33,799 nt of DNA from a virus (lineage: Duplodnaviria > Heunggongvirae > Uroviricota > Caudoviricetes), in IMG/VR virus record IMGVR_UViG_2537561934_000004; one strand, written 5' to 3'. Positions within the stretch are counted from its first letter, which is position 1; the number at the start of each line of letters is the position of its first letter. The notes beneath the pieces were generated by a model, which saw nothing but the letters and a program-made list of their open reading frames with translations, was not told where the DNA came from and did no database searches. The position numbers and the translations under genes were made by a program. Shown here piece by piece: positions 5,950 through 33,799 of this stretch.

Positions 5950-8025
5950 TTACCAGCCTGTAATGTAGTTATCGCCCGCGTAAATATTCAGCCCCATACC
6001 ATCCTCGGTGACGCGGGAACTGGTCAGACGTAACCCCTCGCCAAGTTCGACGCGCAGCGAGGCTTCCGCATTCACTTTTTGCTCCTGCGGTTCCTTATCC
6101 GTGGCCGTCCACTTCTGATACAGGTCGGTTACAAAACCGCCCAGATACTCCCCGGCGACACTGCCCAGCGTGGCACCGGCAACCGTACCCAGCGGTCCGG
6201 CAAGGCTGCCAACGGCACCGCCGAGCCATGCACCGGCTGTACTGCCAATTGCGCCTGCTTTTTCATGGGTTGACGCCTGCTCATCCATCAGGACGGGGGC
6301 AAGCTGGAGTGCCCCCATTACCGGGCCACCCAGACGTGACAACGCACGCCCCGCGCCTTTCCCCATCCAGCCCAGCGCCCCGGCACCTTTTGTCACAACC
6401 CGACCGATCGCACTGCCTGCAAGTTTGTTTCCGATACCGGAAAACCACCCGCCAGCGGCACGCCCGGCATCAGCCAGCTTTCCGACCGCTCCCGTAACCA
6501 GTTGCCCGGCAGCACTGCCTGCAAGCCTGCTCAGAAGACCGGATTTACCGGGTAAAGGTAATGGTGCAGGCCGTGCCGTTACCGGTACGCCGGGTGGGGG
6601 TAATGCCAGAACAGGGCGTGGTGCAGGTAATGCCAGCGGCTGTGGCCCGGACAGCAATAACGGCTGGCGGGGTAACAGGGGCGTCATGCCTTTGCCTTTC
6701 CGGGTGCGACCACCACGGCCACCGCTTCCGTAACCGCCGAACCCGTGAGGCCAGTTAGTGACAAACACACGCTGAATGCCGATACCCTGCAACAGCGTCT
6801 CAGACGTCATGGCATCCGGGACCGGCAGACCTGCCTGCCCACGTTTGCGGTTTCGCATCCAGCGCCACATACGACGCCCGGTTTTAAACGGATAACTGGC
6901 AACCTGCCATGAGGGTTTTGCCACGGCCCAGCCTGCTCTCAGGGCTTTATTGGCAAGCCAGACAGACACCAGAACAGCAGCCAGTTTTTTCAGGCTGACA
7001 ATATTCTGGTCAACCCATGCCAGCGCATCTTTACCCGGTTTCAGCCAGCGCCATAATTCCTGCGCCGCGATTTTTACCTTTCTGAACGTGGTCAGGAATT
7101 TCTGACCAATGTTTTCTGCCAGTGCGTCCAGCTCCCCGGATTTATCCGCCGCATCGTGCCAGTTAAGCACCCGGCGCATCTCGTTCTTGATTTCTTCAAA
7201 GGGGCCGCTGTTTGCCACCTTCGTGCGAAACTCAAGCAGGTTGCCCTCCATCTGGGCCATCATCCCGTCCCAGGAGTTCATGGCAGCCGCCTGTGCGCCT
7301 TCTGACTGCTCCAGCAGGGTCCGGAATACCGTCAGAATGGCTTTCTTGCCCAGCTTGCCTTTTTCACCCAGCTTACGGATTTTTTTCTCATCCTTACCCG
7401 TTGCATCTGCCAGCACCTTGTAAACGTTGATACCGTAACCGGTCAGCAGGTTGGCGTCCGCCGCCGTGATTTGCTGGCGGGCAAACATCTGTTTGAACTG
7501 TAACGAAGCCCCCTGCGCGGTGGGTAAATCCCAGCCATGCATCGCGCCCTGATTCTGTAGCATGGTGATGAACTGTTTTACCTGGGCGTCAGTCATGCCA
7601 AACGCCGTTGATGTGCGGATTTCCTGCAGAACGCCGCCCAGCCCCCAGGTGGTTTCTTTTGCGTTCTGCTTCGCCCACGCCATCATGGCCTGTGCTCTGG
7701 CCTTATCGCCGTGATACAGCGAGTTCATGGCGATAATCTGCTGCTCACGCTGGGCGGCGGCACCAATAAACAGTTTATTGGCGGTGTAACCCACGCCAGC
7801 GATACCCAGCGCCCCGGCTGACAGCATTCGGAATGTACGGGTTGACAGTGAACCCATTCTGTCAATGGCACCAGAAACGCGCACAACCTCCATACGCAGG
7901 GCACGAAGGGAACTTTGTCCGCTACGGGACAGGGCGTTTATCTGGTTCGAATACTCGCGGGAACGCCGGGAAAGATTGCCATTAAGATCAATAATGACAG
8001 ACGCCTTTAAGCGTTTCCCGGTCAT
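5950..8025 (-). CDS. Tail tape measure protein
   Basis: 691-aa ORF between tail tube/chaperone and N. Predicted helical N-terminal two-thirds and a Gly/Ala/Pro-rich low-complexity C-terminal third. Start has an AGGAAA Shine-Dalgarno. Confidence 0.85.
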
Positions 8026-8979: not shown

Positions 8980-10479
8980 TTACAGAATGAACTGAACTTG
9001 TGCCGCGAAAATGCGGAACTGGTTAATCAGATTCGGGCCGCACAGCACATCAAGACGGTCTTTGTCGTCCTTGTTACGTGCCACATACAGCTCCTCTTTG
9101 AACGTGTCGAAATCCTCGACCAGTCCGGCGTTTTCCCATTCTTCAAACAGTGCCAGCAGCTCCGTTTTGATCACGGATGGCGTCACCACGGCCTGACCGG
9201 TGGCAAAGCGGGTGCCATCACTTGCCAGCTTGTGGTTCGGGAATTTCTGCGTGATGCGGGTTCGCAGCGAATAACGCAGATAACTCAGCGTGGCGATGGT
9301 ATTCACGTTCAGATAAGACGGATCGCTGTCACCGTACTTGTTCGTGCGGTACATCGTGATCATGCGTTCAATCTGCATTTCACCACCATCATTCACGTTA
9401 AACGTGGAGATGCCGTCAAACAGCAGCGCATTACGTTCTGACCAGGTGAAACGATCCCCCACCGCAGGCGGCATTCTTCCGGGCAACGTCAGCGTCTGGA
9501 GTGGACGCGCCGGGTCGATGGAAAGCGCCTGGCTGGCAACGGCACACAGGGTGGCGGCGTACAGATATGACGGTTCCGGTGCACCGGCAATCCCCATACA
9601 GGAAATCAGATGGTCATTACGTCTGACACCAAACGTGGAAATATCCCCATACGTGCCGGACAGCACTGTCACGGCAAAGCCATCAGCCTGACTGACCGGT
9701 CCCCAGCGTTCCTGCAATTCAGTGCGTAACAGATTCAGGTTCGGTTCATCGGTATAGGGCATCACAATATATTTGTATTGCAGATCGCCCATTCCCGCGA
9801 TACTTGCGCTGATATCCGGGTTGATGTATTTCCGGGATTCGGCTTTGAATGCCGTGATAATCCCGTAAGGGGTGGTTTCACCCGCGTAATAGTTCCAGCG
9901 CACATCCACGGCAGATAATGCACCCGTAAATTTTGCAGTCAGAACTATATCTGTAGCGCCGGCATCATCCGGCGTGGTTGAGAGCAATACTGCCTTCACC
10001 GGCAAATCAGGATGACCGTTGATTCGGTCAGTCAGCAGGCCAGCCAGCTTCGATCCCTTGGTACCTGCTGCGACGGATACCGCCAGTCGCTGACCGGCAA
10101 TGTAAGTCACAAGCGAGCCGTTTTCGGTTGCCGTTCCTGACAGTGTGATTAAACCGACAGTAGTTTTAGAGATAGTATTACCGGGGTTTTTCGCCTGCGG
10201 AATACACCACAGCTCCGCCACGCGGTTAGCTTTCAGGAATGCATCTGCCATCAGTGCCAGCATGGAACCCTGACCAAACGCCGCACTGGCCTGTGAGCCG
10301 GAACGGATACGGACAGGCACGTCTGGTGCCGCACTGGCCCCCTTATTGCTTTGCCCGAACATCAGCACGCGCTGACGGGGGGCCGGTGTTCCGCTGACGG
10401 CATTACTGTTATCAAATTCGATATACGCCAGAGGAACGCGAACATCTGGCGGGATCGCGTTAAATGAAATATCGCTCAT
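8980..10479 (-). CDS. L: Contractile tail sheath protein (Mu L-like)
   Basis: 499-aa ORF followed by the tube gene, the sheath-tube order of contractile tails; size matches Mu L. Confidence 0.85.
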
Positions 10480-10485
10480 TTCGAT

Positions 10486-10716
10486 TTACTCCGTTTTTTT
10501 CAGCGCAGCGTCGGTATCATCCGCCGTGTTTTCGGTGCTCCCGACTTCAACCACATCAGTGTTTTCGGTGCTCCCGACTTCAACCACATCACCGGCTACA
10601 AGGCGACGTATCCAGAAACTGTTACGGGGCTTTTCTTCTCCCTCAGGCGCCAGTAATTCCATCGTGAGCGGGTCACGGATGGTTTTTCCCTCTGCGGGTT
10701 TAATTTTCAGCATCAT
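10486..10716 (-). CDS. Small virion-module protein (Mu gp38-like) containing an 11-aa tandem repeat
   Basis: 76-aa ORF upstream of the sheath gene; contains DVVEVGSTENT twice, encoded by a perfect 33-bp tandem duplication. Confidence 0.6.
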   Translation of the reverse strand: MMLKIKPAEGKTIRDPLTMELLAPEGEEKPRNSFWIRRLVAGDVVEVGSTENTDVVEVGSTENTADDTDAALKKTE

Positions 10717-11248
10717 TATCCTTTTCCTGATTCACATTGATATGTGCGGCAAATTCCGGGGTTTCGGCCGGGAGTTTCCAGGTCTGCCAGTGACGCTCGT
10801 AATCATCCAGCGAATCCATGTCCACCACGGACGGCAGCGGGGTAGTGCCACTCAACAGAACGCCGTAAAGCACCACGCCGGCATTGATACGGTTGTCGTC
10901 ACAAAGATTTCTGACCTGCGTCAGTCTCATCCCGGTGGTCTGGCCAAACGTCTGACCGTTAACACCGGCAATCAGTCGCTCCACAATCTGATAAATACCG
11001 GGCCGGTTTACCGGTTCCCCGTTCAGCAACTCCGCCACGACAAAAAATGCCCAGCGACTTTCAACTTCCCGACGCGTACGCCCCTCACCACAGCCCATCC
11101 ATGCCAGAAATACCGATGGCGGGGCCAGAAAGAGACGGTGTACATCCTCGTTAGTCCATGTGCCGGTAAGGGGTTCCACCTGCCGCAGGGTTGCCCCAAA
11201 CAACTCACGAACGCGCGCCAGCAGTGCGGCTTCGGTTTCTTCCAGCAT
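10700..11248 (-). CDS. Mu gp37 (K)-like tail completion protein
   Basis: 182-aa ORF in the head-tail joining block; start overlaps the stop of the upstream gene. Confidence 0.7.
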   Translation of the reverse strand: MLEETEAALLARVRELFGATLRQVEPLTGTWTNEDVHRLFLAPPSVFLAWMGCGEGRTRREVESRWAFFVVAELLNGEPVNRPGIYQIVERLIAGVNGQTFGQTTGMRLTQVRNLCDDNRINAGVVLYGVLLSGTTPLPSVVDMDSLDDYERHWQTWKLPAETPEFAAHINVNQEKDNDAEN

Positions 11249-13064: not shown

Positions 13065-14146
13065 TTTTCTTGTTCCTGTTTCATTTTCAGATACTCAGCC
13101 TCAGTAATGCCGAGCGCCTTCACTGCTGCCTGTTCATCAGCAGACAGCACCGCCACCGCCGGTTTTTCCTGTGACGGTTTTTTCGCTGTGGTGGTCTGCA
13201 TGGCAGATAACGCAGCGATGGGCTGTTTTTCCTCAAGCTGTGCCGACAGTGCCGCCACGCCAATCTGACCGCCAAGCTGTTCCAGGTAAGTGCGTTCGCT
13301 TTTGAAAATGCGGCCTTCCTGTTCCGCCTTGTCCAGAACGGCGCTCAGGCTGGCTGCGGCGCTTTGTGCAGTCGCCTGTGCCAGTTCATCACGCAGGGCG
13401 TTGTAGCTTTCCACCGGGACGTATTTCGTCAGGTCAACGGCGGCTTTCTGTGCCTTTTCCAGTTCGGCGGATAACGACGCCACTTTTCCGGCATCTGTTT
13501 CGAGTGCATCAAGCGCACTCAGGGCCGCACTGGCCTGTTCATCGGTGATGTCTGCATTTTCGGGGACCGTCACTCCAAGACGCGCAAGCAGCTTGCGCAG
13601 CGTTTCATTCATGGGTTTGTTCTCCTGTTGAAGGATGTCGGGAAGGTCTGCCGCCAGTGCGGTCAGCTTTTTCATGCCGGTGGCACCGGGGTCATTGGTC
13701 AGCGCAGCAAGGCGGATTTGCAGCACCGCACCGGTGGCGGTGTCATACGGAAAAACCGCAGAGAGATAACCAAATTCGCCGTCATCGATGCGCTGCTGCG
13801 CCGCCGCCGTCCAGCGTGGGTGGATAAATAATCCTTCACCTTCACGCCACTGCATTTCATCGGCGTTAAACCAGCCAGCCGCGACGAGTTGTTCCGGGGG
13901 TAATCCTTTGTCCTTACGTAGCTGGTTATGCTCGTAATCAATCAGTACGTCCTGGTTGAGCGCGCGAACGCCTTCAACCAGACGCCCGGCAATCTCACCG
14001 TCGATGAACCACCCCTGACCACCTGTCACATCAAACGGGCGACCATCACGGGCACTGAAATGACCGGCAGGCAATAGCTGGCACCAGCCGTCATCGTCAA
14101 TGGACAGCGCACTCAGTGCGGCAATGCCAATCGCGTGTTTTTTCAT
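13061..14146 (-). CDS. I: Prohead protease/scaffold protein (Mu I-like)
   Basis: 361-aa ORF with a globular N-terminal half and an Ala/Gln/Glu-rich predicted coiled-coil C-terminal half, as expected for a protease-scaffold fusion. Confidence 0.85.
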   Translation of the reverse strand: MKKHAIGIAALSALSIDDDGWCQLLPAGHFSARDGRPFDVTGGQGWFIDGEIAGRLVEGVRALNQDVLIDYEHNQLRKDKGLPPEQLVAAGWFNADEMQWREGEGLFIHPRWTAAAQQRIDDGEFGYLSAVFPYDTATGAVLQIRLAALTNDPGATGMKKLTALAADLPDILQQENKPMNETLRKLLARLGVTVPENADITDEQASAALSALDALETDAGKVASLSAELEKAQKAAVDLTKYVPVESYNALRDELAQATAQSAAASLSAVLDKAEQEGRIFKSERTYLEQLGGQIGVAALSAQLEEKQPIAALSAMQTTTAKKPSQEKPAVAVLSADEQAAVKALGITEAEYLKMKQEQEK

Positions 14147-14342
14147 GTCCTGCTGCTCATCATGGTTTGTGAGCAGTCAGTTTGCGGGAGGTGCGGGAAA
14201 ATCTGGGGTTATGCTATTTGAGTACTGGAGAAAGAAAGTGGAAGGAAGATAAAACGGGATTCATACACCGTTAAATACCGGTTTAAAAATCCCGTGGCGC
14301 GTTTTAAAAAATCTGTGCAGCTGATTTTATGCCTGATTCTGT
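14147..14342. promoter_or_regulatory. G-I intergenic region: predicted late promoter (P_I) and candidate central strong gyrase site
   Basis: 196-bp non-coding gap, the largest in the late region, about 18 kb from the left end, where Mu carries its central gyrase site between G and I. No motif was confirmed. Confidence 0.4.
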
Positions 14343-14813
14343 TTATTGCCTCAGAGCGGCGCTGACGCGTTTTCTGATGGCATCAAAAATTTCCTGTTCC
14401 CCGGTCTTATCCAGCCCCATATAAGGACGCGCAGGAACGCCTGCCGGGCGGGGTGCCATATCGGGTGTACCGCCCCACTGATGAATGGCAGCATAAATTT
14501 TTGGCGAACCAATCAGGGCATAATCCTGTCCATAATCGGTGGTAATACTGCGTGCCAGATCGCCATGCAGGGTAAGAATACTGCCCGGAACAAAACCATG
14601 ATCCTGACGCCATGCCTGCCACGAATCGCTCCATGCTTCCCAGCCTTTCCCTGTATCCGGATCTGCCTGCCGTTCAAATGCCTGTTCCGTGGATGACAGC
14701 AGCGCCGCAGACATCACACGGGGAATGGCGCGGTCACGTGTGACGGTTCCCAGTTCATCCAGCGCAAGCTGAATACGTCGCACATCCACGGCAACGTTCA
14801 TATCAAGACTCAC
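14343..14813 (-). CDS. G: Virion morphogenesis protein (Mu G-like)
   Basis: 156-aa ORF, ATGA-coupled to the upstream gene; size matches Mu G. Confidence 0.8.
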   Translation of the reverse strand: MSLDMNVAVDVRRIQLALDELGTVTRDRAIPRVMSAALLSSTEQAFERQADPDTGKGWEAWSDSWQAWRQDHGFVPGSILTLHGDLARSITTDYGQDYALIGSPKIYAAIHQWGGTPDMAPRPAGVPARPYMGLDKTGEQEIFDAIRKRVSAALRQ

Positions 14814-16165
14814 TTATTCACCTCCACATGCCCCTCCAGTACGTCAATCATCCCGTCAGCAATCGCGGCTTCAAGCGACTGTGCAGATACGCGGCTGATA
14901 CTGACCAGCACATCCGCCCGGTCATTCTGTTTGCTGACAGCCTGCGATGTTCTGACCACAACTTTTGCAGTGCCGTCGCGGGTTGCCACAACATACAGCA
15001 ACTGGTGGTTCTCCCTGTCCCACAATACCGCCTGTGGTTTTGCCATCAGCGACGGCAGACGCTGTAAATCTTCCGGTTTCAGGGCGGCATCAGCAGTGGT
15101 CGCCAGACTTTTCCCGTTCATCACAAGCAGACGGGCTGGCATATTCCCGGTGCGCTGATGTACGGCTTCAGCCACGGATCCCGTCATAAAACCCAGCGCC
15201 CGGATTTCATGACCGGTCTGACGTGATCCTGCCAGGCGTTTAAGCCAGAGGGAAAAAGCAAGCTGACGCTCCCGGCTGTTATTCAGCGTCTGCACAACCT
15301 GCTCACGCAGCTGCGCGTCGTGAATTTCCACCAGTTTTCGAATCAGTGCCTGATCCGTACCAAATGCTGCCGAACCGGGGTTATATGACCAGCCCACATC
15401 CGGCGTCATTTTTACCTGACCGTTGTCAAACGTGGTTGACGATGTGCGGAAAATCTCGCCGGTGCTTTCATCCGTACCGGCATCCACTTCGCGGGTATTC
15501 ATGAATGACGCACCATAACTGACCTGTAGCCCCAGTTCTTTCATGCGGGCCGCAGACAGCGCCCGGACGCGACAGCGGCAGCGCCAGCCGTTCGGCGGGT
15601 AATGCGTCTGCCAGAAAATGTCGTCATACCGGAAAACCACATTGTGCAGCCGCGCATGTTCCGGGCGCGTTCTGCTGTCCATAACGGCGACATACTGCCA
15701 GTACGGATACAGGTCCGCCGTGTTCATCATCTGCGCATAACGTCCCGCCGCATATGCTGTACGGGTGTTGACGTCATAAATGGTTGCCAGACGACGCGGA
15801 CTGCCCAGCTCAATTTTCTTCGCGTTTCCGTCTGTATCCACGATGATTTGTTTTCCCCACCATCCGAGTTTTTGCAGCCGGGGGGCCAGTGTGCGGGTAA
15901 ATTCCTCACGGGTGATACCTTCACTGACAGCCCGCTCCACTTCCTCACGGATTGTGGTCAGTACATCCATCCGGGTGGCTTTGGCAACGGTAAAGGCGCG
16001 GGCGTGCGCGTCTGCCAGTTGTTCGTACCAGTTCCAGGTGATGTTGTAGCCTTTGGCGCGGAAATACGCGACAGCCTCCTTTGGCGGGAGGCGTGCGGCA
16101 TACGCCAGATCAATGGTCTGCTGCGGCATCCAGACGCCCCCATATATCGGCAACAAAAATGGCAC
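14810..16165 (-). CDS. F: Head morphogenesis / minor head protein (Mu F-like)
   Basis: 451-aa ORF downstream of portal. The first ATG overlaps the portal 3' end by 56 nt; an alternative ATG at 16129 gives a 20-nt overlap. Confidence 0.8.
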   Translation of the reverse strand: MPFLLPIYGGVWMPQQTIDLAYAARLPPKEAVAYFRAKGYNITWNWYEQLADAHARAFTVAKATRMDVLTTIREEVERAVSEGITREEFTRTLAPRLQKLGWWGKQIIVDTDGNAKKIELGSPRRLATIYDVNTRTAYAAGRYAQMMNTADLYPYWQYVAVMDSRTRPEHARLHNVVFRYDDIFWQTHYPPNGWRCRCRVRALSAARMKELGLQVSYGASFMNTREVDAGTDESTGEIFRTSSTTFDNGQVKMTPDVGWSYNPGSAAFGTDQALIRKLVEIHDAQLREQVVQTLNNSRERQLAFSLWLKRLAGSRQTGHEIRALGFMTGSVAEAVHQRTGNMPARLLVMNGKSLATTADAALKPEDLQRLPSLMAKPQAVLWDRENHQLLYVVATRDGTAKVVVRTSQAVSKQNDRADVLVSISRVSAQSLEAAIADGMIDVLEGHVEVNK

Positions 16166-17648
16166 GGGTCAGCATGTCGATAAGTTCTGCATCATCCATC
16201 TGCGGATATAATGAAGCGGCTTTGTTCATGGCGGCTTCCGGGCCATCTTTCAGCACAGAAAAAATGACGGGTTTCAGCAGGGGATCAACCGAACGCTGCC
16301 AGTCTTCCGGTGACACGCCCATCCGGTCGATATCATCCTCCTGCGGGATATCTTCAGCGGATAATGCGGCTTCTTTCTGCGGACCGTTATCCGGGACAAC
16401 CGGTTGAGCAGTAAACACGGCTTCGTCACCGACCGGCTGTGGAATATGGAGTTTTTCCTGTATCCAGGAGACCGGAATACGCATTCCCGCCGCCAGTTTC
16501 GGAATGGCGTCAGACAGTGCCGTAATATCACCCGCTTCACTGGTATCAAACACAATGCCCGGCAGGCGGTTAATATCAATGGTGCTGTCACTGTTCAGTG
16601 CCAGCAGGGGATAAATCAGGTCACGGTTAATACTGCGGGCAAGCTGGCCCACATCCGCGTTACGGATTTCCCGGCGAACCTCATCATGCACTTCACCCAG
16701 CGACCGTGCACCTTTATCGCCGGCCTCTGTGGTCAGGGTGCCGCCCAGAATGGCTTTTGAAATCGCTTTTTCTGCCCAGCCAATCATCGCCATAAAGGGG
16801 TCTGACTGACCATCTGCGGCGCTCTGAAAATCCAGCGTCATCCCCATCGGAATAATGCCACCGGCACGTCGCCCGATATCCATCACGGCCTGCATCAGCG
16901 TGGCTTTCTCACGGTTCGTGGAGCCGGTCGGATATTTACCGACGCGCATGGGGAGTCCGTAAATTTCCAGAAACTCTGCAAAATCACGCACGGAATAGTT
17001 TTTAAAAATAAAAGGCCAGATAAGCGTGCGCACAAGGCCATTGGTGCCAACGTACCCGGTGCGGGATTTGGCCCGGTGCATAAACCAGCCGAACGGTTGC
17101 AGCTCCAGCCCGTGATAAGACGCATCACACAGGCGTAATTCGTTCAGATTGTCGGGGTTCGCACAGAACAGCGCCGGATCGCGATGATGCAGCGCCACCG
17201 GCACGCGCATTTTGCCCAGCCATCCCCATTCAATCTCCTGCATGGAATAACCCTTGAGAATGGCATCACCGGCATCAAACAGGGCATCTTCAAACCACGC
17301 CGCATCATGCAGATATTCATTCAGCATGTCGGCGTCTTTTTTCTCCTGTGCGCTGGCATCACGTGCCGGAGCGATGCGCCATTCCAGCGCCTGAATGGCA
17401 AGCCGGCGTTTGCTCAGTTCGGAAAAAAGGTGGGTGTCCTTTTCTTCCATATCAAAGGCCAGGTCAGCCTGTGCGGTCAGATCACCGCGTTCGGCATCAC
17501 GCAGCATCTGCGCGGCCCGGTTCGGCGTCACACCACTGGAAGGATGCTCCTGCGTACGCTTCATGACCATTGCCAGCTCATCGCTGCGGGTCTGCATTTC
17601 ATCGTCAAAATCAAACGGCTGCCCGGAAATATCCAGAATACGGCCCAT
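16110..17648 (-). CDS. H: Portal protein (Mu H-like)
   Basis: 512-aa ORF directly downstream of the terminase large subunit. Confidence 0.85.
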   Translation of the reverse strand: MGRILDISGQPFDFDDEMQTRSDELAMVMKRTQEHPSSGVTPNRAAQMLRDAERGDLTAQADLAFDMEEKDTHLFSELSKRRLAIQALEWRIAPARDASAQEKKDADMLNEYLHDAAWFEDALFDAGDAILKGYSMQEIEWGWLGKMRVPVALHHRDPALFCANPDNLNELRLCDASYHGLELQPFGWFMHRAKSRTGYVGTNGLVRTLIWPFIFKNYSVRDFAEFLEIYGLPMRVGKYPTGSTNREKATLMQAVMDIGRRAGGIIPMGMTLDFQSAADGQSDPFMAMIGWAEKAISKAILGGTLTTEAGDKGARSLGEVHDEVRREIRNADVGQLARSINRDLIYPLLALNSDSTIDINRLPGIVFDTSEAGDITALSDAIPKLAAGMRIPVSWIQEKLHIPQPVGDEAVFTAQPVVPDNGPQKEAALSAEDIPQEDDIDRMGVSPEDWQRSVDPLLKPVIFSVLKDGPEAAMNKAASLYPQMDDAELIDMLTRAIFVADIWGRLDAAADH

Positions 17649-19303
17649 TACCAGCCCCCTCGTTCAAACTGGTGATAATCATCAAAATCATCGTTATCAA
17701 CATCATCACCACGGTGGCGTGGTGGTAGCGGACGAACGCTGTCCTCGTCGATAACAAAACCATTCATATAAGACGCCCTGACAGCCATACAGAGCGCCAC
17801 GGCAAAGTCGCCATGTCGTCGGCCTTTACCACCTTCATCTTTTGTGCGCCCCTTATCAATCTGCGGAATACCTTTGTCCACCTTGATGTGGAGCAGGTCA
17901 TCAAGTGTGGTCTGGTGCCGGGCAATCGTGATGTTCTGCGCCTCAAACTCGCCTTTCAGTTTGGGCATCCACTCCTGATACCAGGATGCGGTCAGATTCA
18001 CACAGTCGATCATCTCCGGGCCATAAATCAGACGGGCGGCTTCTGCCAGATAACCGCCGTTACCGGTGGCATCAAATGCAGCGCCGGTAAAACGGGGCAA
18101 ACGGGACAGAATGAATAAAAGGATTTGTCGCTGCTGGTCATAGGTCACATTACGCAGCTCCACGCGGAAACATTCGCGTTTGCGTAAGTCAGGCGTGATG
18201 GCAAGCGGCACAAACACCGTCAGGTCGCCACGGCGTGCAAAGTCTTCGCCCAGTACGTGTTTATTGAGCGGCGACAGCGCATCGAGCAACGGGAGCAGCT
18301 CCTGTTCACACCAGTCCTGAACGATGCCGTGGCGCATTTGTGGTGTCAGCGATTCAAAATCGTCCGGGGCTTCAAAACGCAGAACCGGGATATCCCGCGC
18401 GGGTGTCATGGCAGCTTCAATCAGCACGCGTGACAGATAAGCGCCCCCGGATTTTTTAGGAATGCAGCCGTATTCCTCGTCGGCGCTCTCTTTATTCGGC
18501 GCATTCCGGTACAGGCCATCACGCCAGGCTTTTTCCGCTTCCGGCGACCACGGCTGATTCGTGACGTAACAGATACGCCGGTACAACCCGTCAGCGATGG
18601 CATCATCCAGCGTGATGCGGTGAACGCTGTAATCCTTGCGCCCCTCGCGCGCATCCTGAATGTACTGGTTAAACAGGTTATCGACGCCGTTATGTGTCGA
18701 TATGATGCGCACGCTGGCACCCCACATGTTTAGTGCAAAGGCCGCTTTCAGCAGTTCGTCCAGGGCTTCATGGAATGCCGCCTCATCAATCACCACGTCC
18801 CCCTGCAAACCACGCAGGTTAGACGGACGGCTTGACAGCGCCTGTATCTTAAATCCGCTGTTCGGAAAGCGGATCATGTAGGTGAGGATTTCTTCTTTTT
18901 TGTCGCTGTCCCAGAAGGTCTGCTCCCAGACGTCAGCCTTTGCCAGCTGGTTAAAGGCGCGGGCAAACAGGGCACAGGCGGCGATGTATTCCAGCGCCAT
19001 TTCCTGACGGGAACCCACATAAAAGACGTTGCGACCACCGCGACGCTTCGGCTTTGCGGCCGTCATGACATTGCGGCCCGCTTCAGCCCATGTCAGACCG
19101 GTACGACGGGATTTTTCAGCGATGCAAATCTGGCTTTCATCCTCAAACCAGCGGCGCTGATAGCCCAGAAAAACCGGTTCATTGCGGGGCTGTGCTTCCC
19201 CGATATCGGTCACGATATTCACGCCGAGCAGTCCGGCTTCCTCACGCAGGTTGATTTTGCGGGGCGCATGAAGGGCTTTAAGATTGTTTTCTCTGGTGTT
19301 CAT
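17648..19303 (-). CDS. Terminase large subunit
   Basis: ORF-track frame 17648..19495, started here at the internal ATG 19303 (MNTRENNLK...), just downstream of the small-subunit stop (19311), giving 552 aa. The upstream 64 codons overlap the preceding gene and look non-coding. Confidence 0.85.
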   Translation of the reverse strand: MNTRENNLKALHAPRKINLREEAGLLGVNIVTDIGEAQPRNEPVFLGYQRRWFEDESQICIAEKSRRTGLTWAEAGRNVMTAAKPKRRGGRNVFYVGSRQEMALEYIAACALFARAFNQLAKADVWEQTFWDSDKKEEILTYMIRFPNSGFKIQALSSRPSNLRGLQGDVVIDEAAFHEALDELLKAAFALNMWGASVRIISTHNGVDNLFNQYIQDAREGRKDYSVHRITLDDAIADGLYRRICYVTNQPWSPEAEKAWRDGLYRNAPNKESADEEYGCIPKKSGGAYLSRVLIEAAMTPARDIPVLRFEAPDDFESLTPQMRHGIVQDWCEQELLPLLDALSPLNKHVLGEDFARRGDLTVFVPLAITPDLRKRECFRVELRNVTYDQQRQILLFILSRLPRFTGAAFDATGNGGYLAEAARLIYGPEMIDCVNLTASWYQEWMPKLKGEFEAQNITIARHQTTLDDLLHIKVDKGIPQIDKGRTKDEGGKGRRHGDFAVALCMAVRASYMNGFVIDEDSVRPLPPRHRGDDVDNDDFDDYHQFERGGW

Positions 19304-19310
19304 AACCCTC

Positions 19311-19901
19311 TCATGCCTTACCCAGCAGCACATCACGGATACGCTGCTCCAGCTCTTCGCTGATGCCATCCTGCCCGCGCAGTTCTTCACTGACGGCGTT
19401 TGCCGCTTCTTCTGCGAATGCCTGGCGGATTTCTTTCTCGCGCCGGTGGCTGGACATTGCCGTGGATTCCAGACGCTGTGCCGCCAGCATGGCATTTTTC
19501 AGCAGGTCAATATCCACGTCAGATTCCGGGTTTTCGATTTGCCGCATCATGGCCTTAAAAAGCTGGCTGCGGGCCATTTCCAGAATCAGCTTTGTGGTTT
19601 CTCCCATTGGCTTGTCGCCAAGTTCTGCGGTCAGTGCTGACGTCATTTCACGCATCTGTCGCAGGTTATGGCCTACCTGCTCGACGTTCGTCGCGTAACG
19701 GTTCAGACCGGAACGGGAGAGTTTCATCTCATCCGGCAGGCCTGCGTCTTCAATCAGTGCGTTAATTTCTTCCAGAATGCGGGCCTGTGGGATCGCTTTA
19801 TCACGCAGCATTTCATGCAGCGTTTTACGTACGTTTTCCGGCAGTAAATCCACTTTTGAAGCCCGGCCCCGTGTTTTCCTGTCCATCACGCCTCCTGTCA
19901 T
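19311..19901 (-). CDS. Terminase small subunit-like protein (Mu gp27 / D-like)
   Basis: 196-aa basic/acidic ORF immediately upstream of the large terminase subunit. Confidence 0.7.
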   Translation of the reverse strand: MTGGVMDRKTRGRASKVDLLPENVRKTLHEMLRDKAIPQARILEEINALIEDAGLPDEMKLSRSGLNRYATNVEQVGHNLRQMREMTSALTAELGDKPMGETTKLILEMARSQLFKAMMRQIENPESDVDIDLLKNAMLAAQRLESTAMSSHRREKEIRQAFAEEAANAVSEELRGQDGISEELEQRIRDVLLGKA

Positions 19902-20188
19902 GCACGGGGACGAGGACGCTTGACACCGGCAACGCGGGCACGACCTTCTGCCACATCCTGACCCCGGGAAGTCAGCGTTACGACATAAAAGCCGCGCAGG
20001 TTTTCCACGGTGACCAGTTGCTGCTCTGCCAGCCAGTCAATCTGGCCGCGAACCACATCGCGGGAAACGTTGTGTCCGTATGCATCCAGACAGTCCTGAA
20101 GGATGGATTCGTTGGCTTCGTTATTGCAGTCCATCAGGGAACGCAGGATGACCAGACGACGGTCTTCGGTCAGAATATCGTTAATCAT
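19898..20188 (-). CDS. Small protein (Mu gp26-like)
   Basis: 96-aa ORF, ATGA-coupled to the small terminase gene. Confidence 0.5.
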   Translation of the reverse strand: MINDILTEDRRLVILRSLMDCNNEANESILQDCLDAYGHNVSRDVVRGQIDWLAEQQLVTVENLRGFYVVTLTSRGQDVAEGRARVAGVKRPRPRA

Positions 20189-20484
20189 GAATTACTCCGG
20201 TTTACTGCGTTTTCAAGCAGCAGCTCCAGTTGATGGGAAAATGACTGCACCCGCTGGGACAGCACCCGGATATCACCGGACAGCTCTGCAATTCGCAGGC
20301 GCATTTCGTGTACATCTTCTGTGCCGGGGATGCTGGCGTAGCGGGTTTCCATTTCGGTCATCCGGTTTTCAAGACGCTCCACACGCTCGGTGCTGGCAAA
20401 ACTACGACGCATCGCCCAGACGGCCCCACCGGCCACAACAGGCAACAGGTAAGGCCATAACGCTAAAACTGAAATCAAATCCAT
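20185..20484 (-). CDS. N-terminally membrane-anchored coiled-coil protein (Mu gp25-like; candidate endolysin-release factor)
   Basis: Hydrophobic N-terminus (LISVLALWPYLLPVVAGGAVWA) followed by a predicted coiled coil. Likely start is the ATG at 20484, which abuts the upstream stop. Confidence 0.55.
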   Translation of the reverse strand: MDLISVLALWPYLLPVVAGGAVWAMRRSFASTERVERLENRMTEMETRYASIPGTEDVHEMRLRIAELSGDIRVLSQRVQSFSHQLELLLENAVNRSNS

Positions 20485-20678
20485 TATTCTGCTCCACGGC
20501 ACCAGTGGCAGTAGTTCGCCATCGGCTGCTGTCTCAGCACATCAGGCCGCAGCTCACGACCGCAACCGGCACACAATACAGGCGGGTCATACGCCGCCGG
20601 GCGGGGAATATCACGGGTATCCCCCTGCCAGAGTTCAGCGAGCAGCAGCGCCAGCGCCCGGTTCTGGTCTTCGTTCAT
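20484..20678 (-). CDS. TraR/DksA-type C4 zinc-finger protein
   Basis: 64-aa ORF with CAGCGRE...N17...CHWCRG (CxxC-N17-CxxC). Confidence 0.6.
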   Translation of the reverse strand: MNEDQNRALALLLAELWQGDTRDIPRPAAYDPPVLCAGCGRELRPDVLRQQPMANYCHWCRGAE

Positions 20679-32124: not shown

Positions 32125-32298
32125 GCTTTTCGTGTCTTTAATGAATCAAAAGCTGTTTCCAACAATCTTTCGCGTTTCAAGATGTAACGGCTAAAATCTG
32201 TCCTACAGGCTTGCAAGCCCCACTAAATCTAATCCCGCCAAATCCCGAATAATCCAATGTCCTCCCGGTTTTTTTCGTACTTCAAGTGAATCAATACA
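32125..32298 (-). repeat. Prophage left end with three MuA-binding repeats (L1, L2, L3)
   Basis: On the minus strand: L1 TGTATTGATTCACTTGAAGTACGAAAAAA (32298..32270), L2 CATCTTGAAACGCGAAAG (32184..32167), L3 TGATTCATTAAAGACACGAAAAGC (32148..32125). All carry the (A/C)CGAAA(A) core and the spacing (about 0-28, 114-131, 150-173 bp from the end) matches Mu attL. Confidence 0.8.
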
Positions 32299-32706
32299 CC
32301 CGATTATATTTCCCGCTACGGGAAGCCAGAAACGATCGACGATTTAAAGCAACATATTTGCCTGGGATTCACTGAACCCGCTTCCCTCAATACCTGGCCG
32401 ATAGCCCGTAGCGATGGACAATTACATGAGGTGAAGTACGGTTTGTCATCCAATAGTGGGGAAACACTGAAACAGCTTTGCCTGAGTGGCAACGGGATTG
32501 CGTGTTTGTCCGACTACATGATCGACAAAGAAATCGCTCGCGGAGAATTGGTGGAGTTAATGGCAGATAAAGTGTTGCCAGTGGAAATGCCATTCAGTGC
32601 CGTCTATTACAGCGACCGTGCGGTAAGTACGCGCATCCGGGCTTTTATCGATTTCCTTAGCGAGCATGTAAAAACAGCTCCCGGAGGAGCTGTCAGAGAG
32701 GCTTAA
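32299..32706 (+). pseudogene. yafC: LysR-type regulator gene (yafC-like) truncated at its 5' end by the prophage
   Basis: The frame translating ...[56 protein letters not shown]... is open from the prophage junction to the stop at 32706. It has no start codon or N-terminal helix-turn-helix; only the C-terminal effector domain remains. Convergent with dkgB as in E. coli. Confidence 0.75.
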
Positions 32707-33506
32707 TCCCATTCAGGAGCCAGACCTTCCGGGCTAACCAGGCGGTCGTTGCAATCCAGTGCGGCGATCGCTTTTTTATCTTCGGCATCAAGCTGTAAAT
32801 TTTGTGCCTTAAGATTACTTTCCAGGTTTTTACGTTTAGTAGAAGAAGGAATTACTGAGTAACCTTCCCCCATAGCCCACGCCAGAATCACTTGTGCCGG
32901 AGTCGCATTGTGTTTAGCTGCGATACGAGCAATAACCTCATCTTTCAGGGCCTTACCATACGCCAGCGTCATATAGGAAGTAATATGGATGCCGTGCTGT
33001 TTAGCCCAGGCAACCACTTTACGGTTTTGCAGATAAGGAGAGAGTTCAATCTGGTTAGTAGCGATGTTTTCAGCACCAACAGCAGCAATCGCTTTTTCCA
33101 TCAACGGGATCGTGAAGTTGGAAATACCGATCTCACGCGTCAGCCCTTGTTTTTTGGCTTCCAGCAGCGCCTGCATAAACTCTTCAACAGAGACTTCATC
33201 GTTTGGTGACGGCCAGTGGATTAGCGTCAGATCAACATAATCGGTACGCAATTTTTGCAGGCTCTCTTTCAGACTTGGGATCAATTTGTCTTTGCTGAGA
33301 TTTTCAATCCAGATTTTAGTGGTGATGTAGAGTTCATGACGTGGCACGCCACTTTCTGCAATCGCCTGACCTACTGCGGCTTCGTTATCATAGATTTGTG
33401 CGGTATCAATTGCGCGATAACCAAGTTCAAGCGCCGTTATCACAGATGAAATAACAACGTCGTCTTTCAGACGGAAAGTACCTAAACCAAATGCAGGGAT
33501 AGCCAT
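32703..33506 (-). CDS. dkgB: Aldo-keto reductase, 2,5-diketo-D-gluconate reductase B
   Basis: 267-aa [21 protein letters not shown]... with aldo-keto reductase motifs ([27 protein letters not shown]); length equals E. coli DkgB. Confidence 0.9.
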
Positions 33507-33628
33507 AATATGCCTCTTTTAATGCTATTTTCGTTAACTGAGGTGATTATGGGCTTCAGACTGTTGAGGAAAAAGAGCGTAAAATGCAGAGGATTTTTGC
33601 GATTCTGGCAATAATAGATATACAGACG

Positions 33629-33656
33629 AAAAAAAACCTCGAGCGTTAACTCGAGG
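33629..33656 (-). terminator. Rho-independent terminator downstream of tRNA-Asp
   Basis: Minus strand reads CCTCGAG-TTAACG-CTCGAGG followed by TTTTTTTT, about 12 nt after the tRNA 3' end. Confidence 0.7.
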
Positions 33657-33668
33657 CTTCTTAATAAG

Positions 33669-33745
33669 TGGCGGAACGGACGGGACTCGAACCCGCGACC
33701 CCCTGCGTGACAGGCAGGTATTCTAACCGACTGAACTACCGCTCC
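33669..33745 (-). tRNA. aspU: tRNA-Asp (anticodon GUC)
   Basis: Minus strand reads GGAGCGGTAGTTCAGTCGGTTAGAATACCTGCCTGTCACGCAGGGGGTCGCGGGTTCGAGTCCCGTCCGTTCCGCCA (77 nt, encoded CCA), anticodon loop CUGUCAC. The symbol aspU is inferred from adjacency to dkgB; it could be another Asp copy. Confidence 0.9.
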
Positions 33746-33799
33746 ACCGAATTCTTTTACAACCACCGGTTTTATGACCGGCTTACTGCTTAATTTGAT

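Follow-up and report, generated by a model that had tools for sequence, protein, structure and literature searches.

Phage Mu gp38 and the prophage context of the window

In phage Mu, gene Mu_38 (gp38, AAF01116.1) occupies the slot between gp37 (K) and gp39 (L), and in the GenBank Mu record it carries the label 'putative sheath terminator'. In a 2025 cryo-EM study of the whole Mu virion, the tail tube and sheath were found to be capped by a hexamer of gp37, the tail terminator, and gp38 was described as 'probably structural', its density not being resolved in the particle (PMC11915804). A literature search on DUF2635, the domain carried by gp38, found no paper. Sequence searches of the PDB with gp38 recovered no relatives, a PDB profile search returned a sole match to uL16 that is noise (E = 0.58), and a Foldseek comparison of the gp38 model with the PDB gave only matches with E > 1, the best at a probability of 0.30.

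The DNA analysed here, referred to as the window, is a stretch of 33,799 nt made up of approximately 32.3 kb of Mu-like prophage and 1.5 kb of E. coli host DNA. Its features relevant to this work are the following:

8980..10479, minus strand: tail sheath gene (gpL / gp39 homolog, 499 aa; Phage_sheath_1 and Phage_sheath_1C), directly downstream of gp38, with Mu_39 in the same place in Mu
10486..10716, minus strand: Mu gp38 homolog (DUF2635) gene, 76 aa; N-domain at about aa 5-47, followed by a 29-residue acidic tail
10494..10500, minus strand: A7 run (T7 on the plus strand), where Mu has A6
10526..10558, minus strand: repeat copy 2, gp38 residues 54-64, the second DVVEVGSTENT; a net 11-residue insertion relative to Mu
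10559..10591, minus strand: repeat copy 1, gp38 residues 43-53 (DVVEVGSTENT), of which DVVEV is the last beta-strand completing the DUF2635 domain
10700..11248, minus strand: tail terminator gene (gpK / gp37 homolog, 182 aa; Phage_Mu_Gp37), directly upstream of gp38
32264..32298, minus strand: Mu left end, the first 35 nt of Mu with 0 mismatches
32299-33799: host flank, E. coli chromosome (tRNA-Asp / yafC / dkgB), 100% identical to E. coli chromosomes

To the left of the Mu end at 32264..32298 the window is prophage throughout. The presence of the Mu terminal sequence at the host junction, together with the scattered insertion sites described below, identifies the element as a Mu-like transposable prophage (Muvirus). 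The tail terminator gene overlaps the start of gp38 by 17 nt, and homologs of gp36/J, gp35 and gpT were recognized by Pfam further upstream of gp37/K. This gene order is that of Mu, and the placement of the small ORF between the gp37 and sheath genes is the same in an E. coli prophage and in the loci that encode two other gp38 proteins, P0009 and P0016. At the DNA level the region is approximately 90% identical to Mu, D108, SfMu and Yersinia Mu-like phages; identity to the prophages of 44 complete E. coli genomes is approximately 96%. Several sequences are cut off within the tail-fibre gene, some 10.5-10.7 kb downstream of gp38: the window at its position 1, loci L029, L030 and L031 at their ends, and the contigs of L004-L006. 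Assembly breaks at the invertible G segment could account for this.

A perfect 33-bp tandem duplication within gp38

An original prediction, made from the letters of the window, proposed a perfect in-frame 33-bp tandem duplication at 10526-10591 that doubles the peptide DVVEVGSTENT inside a small structural gene. Tandem Repeats Finder reported at these positions two back-to-back copies of GTGTTTTCGGTGCTCCCGACTTCAACCACATCA with zero mismatches (period 33, 2.0 copies, 100% matches, 0 indels, score 132), by far the strongest tandem array within the 33,799-nt window, and an independent repeat search returned the identical pair at 10526-10558 and 10559-10591. The array comprises exactly 2.0 copies, as the bases of neither flank prolong the unit. 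No other occurrence of the 33-mer was found in the window at up to 3 mismatches, and 0 of 100 shuffled windows held any match; a simple calculation puts the number of perfect 33-bp tandems expected by chance in 33.8 kb at about 33799 x 4^-33, or roughly 5e-16. The repeat is in frame with the minus-strand ORF 10486..10716, the 76-aa product of which (MMLKIKPAEGKTIRDPLTMELLAPEGEEKPRNSFWIRRLVAGDVVEVGSTENTDVVEVGSTENTADDTDAALKKTE) carries the doubled peptide, so that both the tandem and its translation are as predicted. The description of the gene as small and structural stands in its first part; 'structural' follows from its position, and gp38 was not found in the Mu virion by cryo-EM (PMC11915804).

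The duplication lies at the edge of the conserved domain

The 76-aa protein matched PF10948 (DUF2635) with 77.4 bits against a cutoff of 26.6 (E = 6.7e-22), the match being limited to residues 5-48, which correspond to profile positions 1-44 of 46. The window ORF also occupies the gene position of the gp38 family, with the tail terminator gene (gp37) on one side and the tail sheath gene on the other, and its product shares with Mu gp38 the DUF2635 consensus core KPxG..VRDP.T..L..G..P...W.RRL..GDV. An exhaustive HMMER search of the family gave 479 clusters at E <= 0.001, from which 146 representatives were used for the tallies given here. W35 is invariant among the 146, residues G10, D15, P16, L22, G26, R37, R38 and V44 are each present in at least 88-90% of them by either of two tallies, and the G-D-V motif is present in 86-91%. 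The window protein keeps W35 and all of these nearly invariant residues. The duplication starts at D43, and its first copy leaves G42-D43-V44 contiguous.

Beyond the GDVxxV strand the picture is one of variability. Tails in the 146 representatives are 3-75 residues long (median 24.5; the window tail has 29) and are rich in A, K, E, P, S and T; no conserved column was found past the V47 column among these sequences. An AlphaFold2 model based on a 105-sequence alignment had a pLDDT of approximately 90 for residues 1-48 and of 49-62 afterwards. The predicted elements are strands at residues 2-7 and 27-30, a helix at 33-41, and a strand at 44-46 (pLDDT about 82-91); secondary structure ends at residue 46, and pLDDT falls below 50 at residues 58-65. 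Repeat copy 2, at residues 54-64, thus lies within the tail that is predicted to be disordered. Two very large proteins, P0031 (4104 aa) and P0145 (1056 aa), matched the gp38 query in 10 and 6 stretches respectively, and these matches are probably due to low-complexity acidic or repeat sequence and not to homology.

Copy number in related phages and prophages

The comparison of copy number among related prophages that had been proposed along with the duplication was carried out, and the relatives proved to be single-copy, so the duplication is genuine with respect to them. Mu, D108, SfMu and the Yersinia Mu-like phages have one copy, spanning approximately 567 bp against the 601-bp query; the same is true of 14 of 14 phage records, and of the matches listed from the 44 matching complete E. 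coli genomes, two rows of these comparisons spanning 566 bp. The duplicated allele was found neither among the isolated, plaque-forming phage records nor among the complete RefSeq E. coli genomes. Alignment to Mu and to E. coli 22KM0354 gave a clean gap of 33 nt, or 11 aa. Within the gp38 cluster at 90% identity, which has four members, the 76-aa form occurs on 102 contigs, a 75-aa form with an alternative start on 19, a 65-aa form on 2, and a 79-aa form on 1; a three-copy form is absent from this cluster. Outside the insertion, Mu gp38 has approximately 88% aa identity to the window protein, which differs from it by the additional DVVEVGSTENT, by ending in ALKKTE in place of APKKRSKSK, and by a stop 6 nt before the sheath ATG.

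The nearest single-copy sibling is P0023 (65 aa), encoded on a 36.9-kb metagenome scaffold (L008, ERZ28590838), which shares with the window E9, T12, E20 and V40 as well as the A7 run and ALKKTE end. Over 6.2 kb this scaffold is identical to the window except for the 33 bp, of which it holds a single copy. It may represent either the immediate ancestor of the duplicated allele or a revertant by collapse; collapse by the assembler is unlikely, because any junction-spanning k-mer longer than 33 nt is unique. The reverse combination, two copies with the ancestral CCG-A6 end on the same E9/T12/E20/V40 background, is found in P0024 (L009), a 1.26-kb sewage-metagenome contig that is the sole basis for this form, has the A6 end within its last 45 nt, and may be chimeric. 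All four combinations of one or two copies with A6 or A7 are therefore seen (Mu-type, L008, the window and L009), and at least one reversal, recombination event or chimeric contig (L009) is needed to account for them. A perfect 33-bp tandem is easily reversed by collapse.

Other E. coli gp38 alleles have changed at the same place. P0009 (79 aa), P0016 (76 aa) and P0013 (75 aa) have acidic residues inserted at the same point, after GDVxEV, but unlike the insertion in the window these are unrelated in sequence and are not perfect repeats. The DNA of the P0009 tail holds a degenerate internal repeat (30 nt at 70% identity, offset 36) that was equalled in 0 of 200 shuffles, and its product has a DVLEV/DIAEV match at offset 33. 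Tails of the P0009 type may have grown by earlier duplications that have since decayed, a suggestion tempered by the low complexity of the sequence. A further E. coli allele, P0017 (73 aa), is frameshifted directly after GDVVEVG; it may show that the tail-coding part of the gene tolerates or accumulates frameshifts, or it may be a pseudogene or a sequencing error.

A second lesion at the gp38 C-terminus

The original prediction made no mention of a second lesion in the same gene. At 10486-10501 on the minus strand, the window reads CTG-AAAAAAA where Mu reads CCG-AAAAAA. The extra A shifts the frame, so that the C-terminus APKKRSKSK becomes ALKKTE, and the stop, which in Mu forms an ATGA overlap with the start of the sheath gene, becomes a TAA (10486-10488) located 6 nt upstream of the sheath ATG. 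The A7 run and the CTG change are present in all carriers of the duplication and in the one-copy sibling L008. Counting both the duplication and the loss of KRSKSK, the net charge of the tail goes from about +1 in Mu to about -6 in the window. P0009 (locus L032) arrives at this GAG-TAA stop, likewise 6 nt ahead of the sheath gene, through a different indel; as P0009 lacks the basic end independently, loss of the basic C-terminus is also tolerated in nature. If one A were lost from the run, through +1 or transcriptional slippage, the ancestral tail would be expected to return.

Distribution and insertion sites of the duplicated allele

In the public collection, 106 blocks index a protein identical to the 76-aa product, and the 76-aa and 75-aa gene calls are found on 102 and 19 contigs, which are E. 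coli by NCBI naming. The duplication junction was present in the DNA of 17 fetched loci representing 14 distinct contigs, and in 2 IMG/VR contigs. The carrier assemblies are independent (NCBI, ENA and IMG) and span more than a decade, with GCA_000357145.2, GCA_012065325.1 and GCA_045080665.1 as examples. On these numbers the possibility raised at the outset, that the duplication is an assembly artefact, was not borne out. Searches for the junction in species-representative genomes and in JGI metagenome contigs gave 0 matches each; this carries no weight, since the allele is found in E. coli draft assemblies outside the representative set.

Carrier loci were retrieved using gp48 (701-1243 in the window) with 10-kb flanks, which span both gp38 and the Mu right end; gp48 was used in place of the repressor, which is too widespread (4190 blocks) and lies at too great a distance from gp38. 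All nine loci reached from gp48 have the perfect two-copy tandem and the A7 tail. Seven of the nine run past the Mu right end into host DNA, and each of the seven has a different flank: flhDC/motAB, asnS/pncB/pepN, a lambdoid prophage (lom/tail fibre), cobUST, rna/rnk, a peptide ABC transporter, and ppnN/queF. In each case the prophage ends in ...CGTGCGCCGCTTCA or ...CATGAGCCGGCTCA, followed by unrelated host DNA. The left flank of the window itself is dkgB/yafC, which on the K-12 map presumably adjoins none of the seven, and the window is probably an eighth insertion site.

Across the 10.5-kb tail block, the carriers differ from one another by only 0-18 substitutions (<=0.17%). Mu integrates by near-random transposition upon infecting a cell, and the differing sites therefore imply infectious cycles with the duplication on board. 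With insertion-site diversity as the only guide to infectivity, we infer a young phage lineage that has passed through many infectious cycles while keeping the duplication. At a divergence of <=0.17%, fewer than 0.2 substitutions are expected in 66 bp, and the identity of the two copies consequently says little about their age. The proposal that zero divergence marks a very recent event was right as to the youth of the lineage, given at most 18 substitutions per 10.5 kb and a sibling that is identical over 6.2 kb, but the event is not private to one prophage, being found at seven or more sites.

Carrier diversity elsewhere in the prophage

Two kinds of right-end module, at about 14100-15850 in locus coordinates, were observed in L022-L028. 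L025 and L028 combine a full-length invertase (193-197 aa) with com, mom and ...CGTGCGCCGCTTCA, the canonical Mu end; in L022-24, L026 and L027 the invertase call is shorter (171 aa), a 148-aa ORF takes the place of com/mom, and the end is the variant ...CATGAGCCGGCTCA. No Pfam match was found for the 148-aa ORF. The tape-measure gene (5950-8025, minus strand) encodes 691 aa in the window and most carriers, and 706 aa in L023 and L029. The 45-bp indel responsible lies at about 4580-4670 in L023/L029. A 10-bp direct repeat, CACGCCCTGT, borders it; the window has this sequence once, at 6611-6620. The indel is in frame and of the classic microhomology-mediated type, and should alter tail length slightly.

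Compared with the window, L007 / L028 (GCA_045102655.1) has 64 clustered substitutions, at L007 142-1434 and 2309-2441. The clusters cover the gpI/gpT region and the 3' end of gp36, with the remainder nearly identical, and L009 shares the gp36 patch; this clustering points to mosaic recombination between Mu-like prophages. In the metagenome scaffold L031 (ENA ERZ28644628, scaffold_41), at approximately 9277-10010, a truncated gpT (142 aa) is fused to a 55-aa baseplate J-like C-terminal fragment, a deletion that spans gp35 through gp46, gp38 included; the locus is either a defective prophage or a misassembly. The duplication-carrying prophage of L024 (GCA_044906255.1, approximately 15645-20543) is located in or next to a lambdoid lom / tail-fibre region, and prophages with the same repressor are found inside P2-like tail genes (L017 and L018).

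Origin of the duplication

On the coding strand, the single-copy context reads ...GCCGG|TGATGTGG...AAAACAC|GGCGG.... No microhomology was found at the breakpoints: the left flank ...GCCGG was compared with the unit end ...AACAC, and the unit start TGATG... with the right flank GGCGG.... As no base is common at either boundary, slippage between short direct repeats, the origin that had been suggested for the duplication, is without support. Direct or inverted short repeats at the unit boundaries were likewise not found, and folding of the repeat region as single-stranded DNA was unremarkable (z = -1.3; 21 of 200 shuffles folded equally well). In this respect the duplication differs from the tape-measure indel of the same prophages, which has its 10-bp direct repeat, although both are in-frame length polymorphisms. 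The duplication probably originated in an illegitimate, microhomology-independent replication or recombination event. A phase-variable contingency repeat was also considered and was rejected, because a 33-bp unit, its length being divisible by 3, keeps the frame, and because the cluster shows no copy number other than 1 or 2.

Interpretation

Taken together, these results are very probably explained by a heritable and tolerated 33-bp duplication that arose once in a young, circulating lineage of E. coli Mu-like phages and that lengthens the disordered tail of gp38. A single event would have occurred in a recent ancestor of the lineage, which still circulates. The unit spans the last beta-strand (DVVEV) and six tail residues, so copy 1 would still complete the domain, and the net result would be 11 extra residues in a low-complexity, predicted-disordered C-terminal tail that appears free to vary across the family. 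Since tail length and sequence vary so freely, the change is likely to be tolerated, being neutral or nearly so, with the phage presumably continuing to infect and to integrate at new sites. If gp38 is dispensable, the spread of the phage says little about impairment of the protein. The duplication is apparently an ordinary, harmless length polymorphism.

Three other accounts fit the data poorly. The perfect identity of the copies and the single copy in the near-identical metagenome scaffold L008 are what would be expected if a 33-mer had been written twice during assembly or sequencing of a one-copy genome, but the junction recurs in distinct contigs from independent assemblies and at different chromosomal sites, and a 33-bp unit is shorter than normal reads, so that both junctions fit in one read and the repeat is an atypical substrate for misassembly; the probability of an artefact is negligible. 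Zero divergence between the copies would also suit a de novo slip private to the prophage of this strain, which is nevertheless highly improbable for an allele that is present on more than 100 contigs, at 7 or more insertion sites and with two right-end modules, in carriers that vary by the 45-bp tape-measure indel and by the recombinant head segment of L007 with its 64 substitutions. The repeat could instead act at the DNA or RNA level, as a binding site or as an mRNA structure tuning sheath translation with the coding effect incidental, and its position 50-110 nt upstream of the sheath start in a translationally coupled gene pair lends this some appeal. The folding energy is unremarkable, however, there are no notable inverted repeats involving the unit, and the unit reads as normal coding sequence, found once and unchanged in Mu, with the frame kept, all of which make such an element highly improbable.

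Selection for a longer, more acidic tail that alters the role of gp38, whether in tail/sheath assembly or in escape from host defence, is less improbable than these but still unlikely, and the observations do not call for it. The two-copy form is found on 121 contigs against 2 for the one-copy sibling of the same background, two independent changes toward acidity fall within the same 80 nt, and P0009 and P0016 are independently long and acidic, with P0009 also without the basic end. Against this, how often a form turns up in databases depends on sampling and on hitch-hiking with a phage or host clone that does well, and a tail of 3-75 residues without a conserved column is the signature of weak constraint. 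A more elaborate version, which we consider very doubtful, would have the gp38 tail be a module growing by repeated duplication of 'DVxEV plus linker', fresh in the window and decayed in P0009 and P0016, with both the acidic extension and the A7 run being functional. The A7 run would then give rise to ALKKTE and slippage-made KKRSKSK isoforms, the latter restoring ATGA coupling, and would tune sheath synthesis or gp38 activity.

The duplication has little significance beyond bookkeeping. It indicates that a perfect tandem repeat in a phage gene can be a stable, inherited allele and not an artefact, and it provides a handy 33-bp marker with which to track one spreading lineage of E. coli Mu-like phages. 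The natural tolerance of both an 11-residue insertion and the loss of the basic C-terminus indicates that the tail of gp38, a widely conserved protein with 479 family clusters, is not constrained in sequence, and functional work is therefore best aimed at the 47-residue N-domain.
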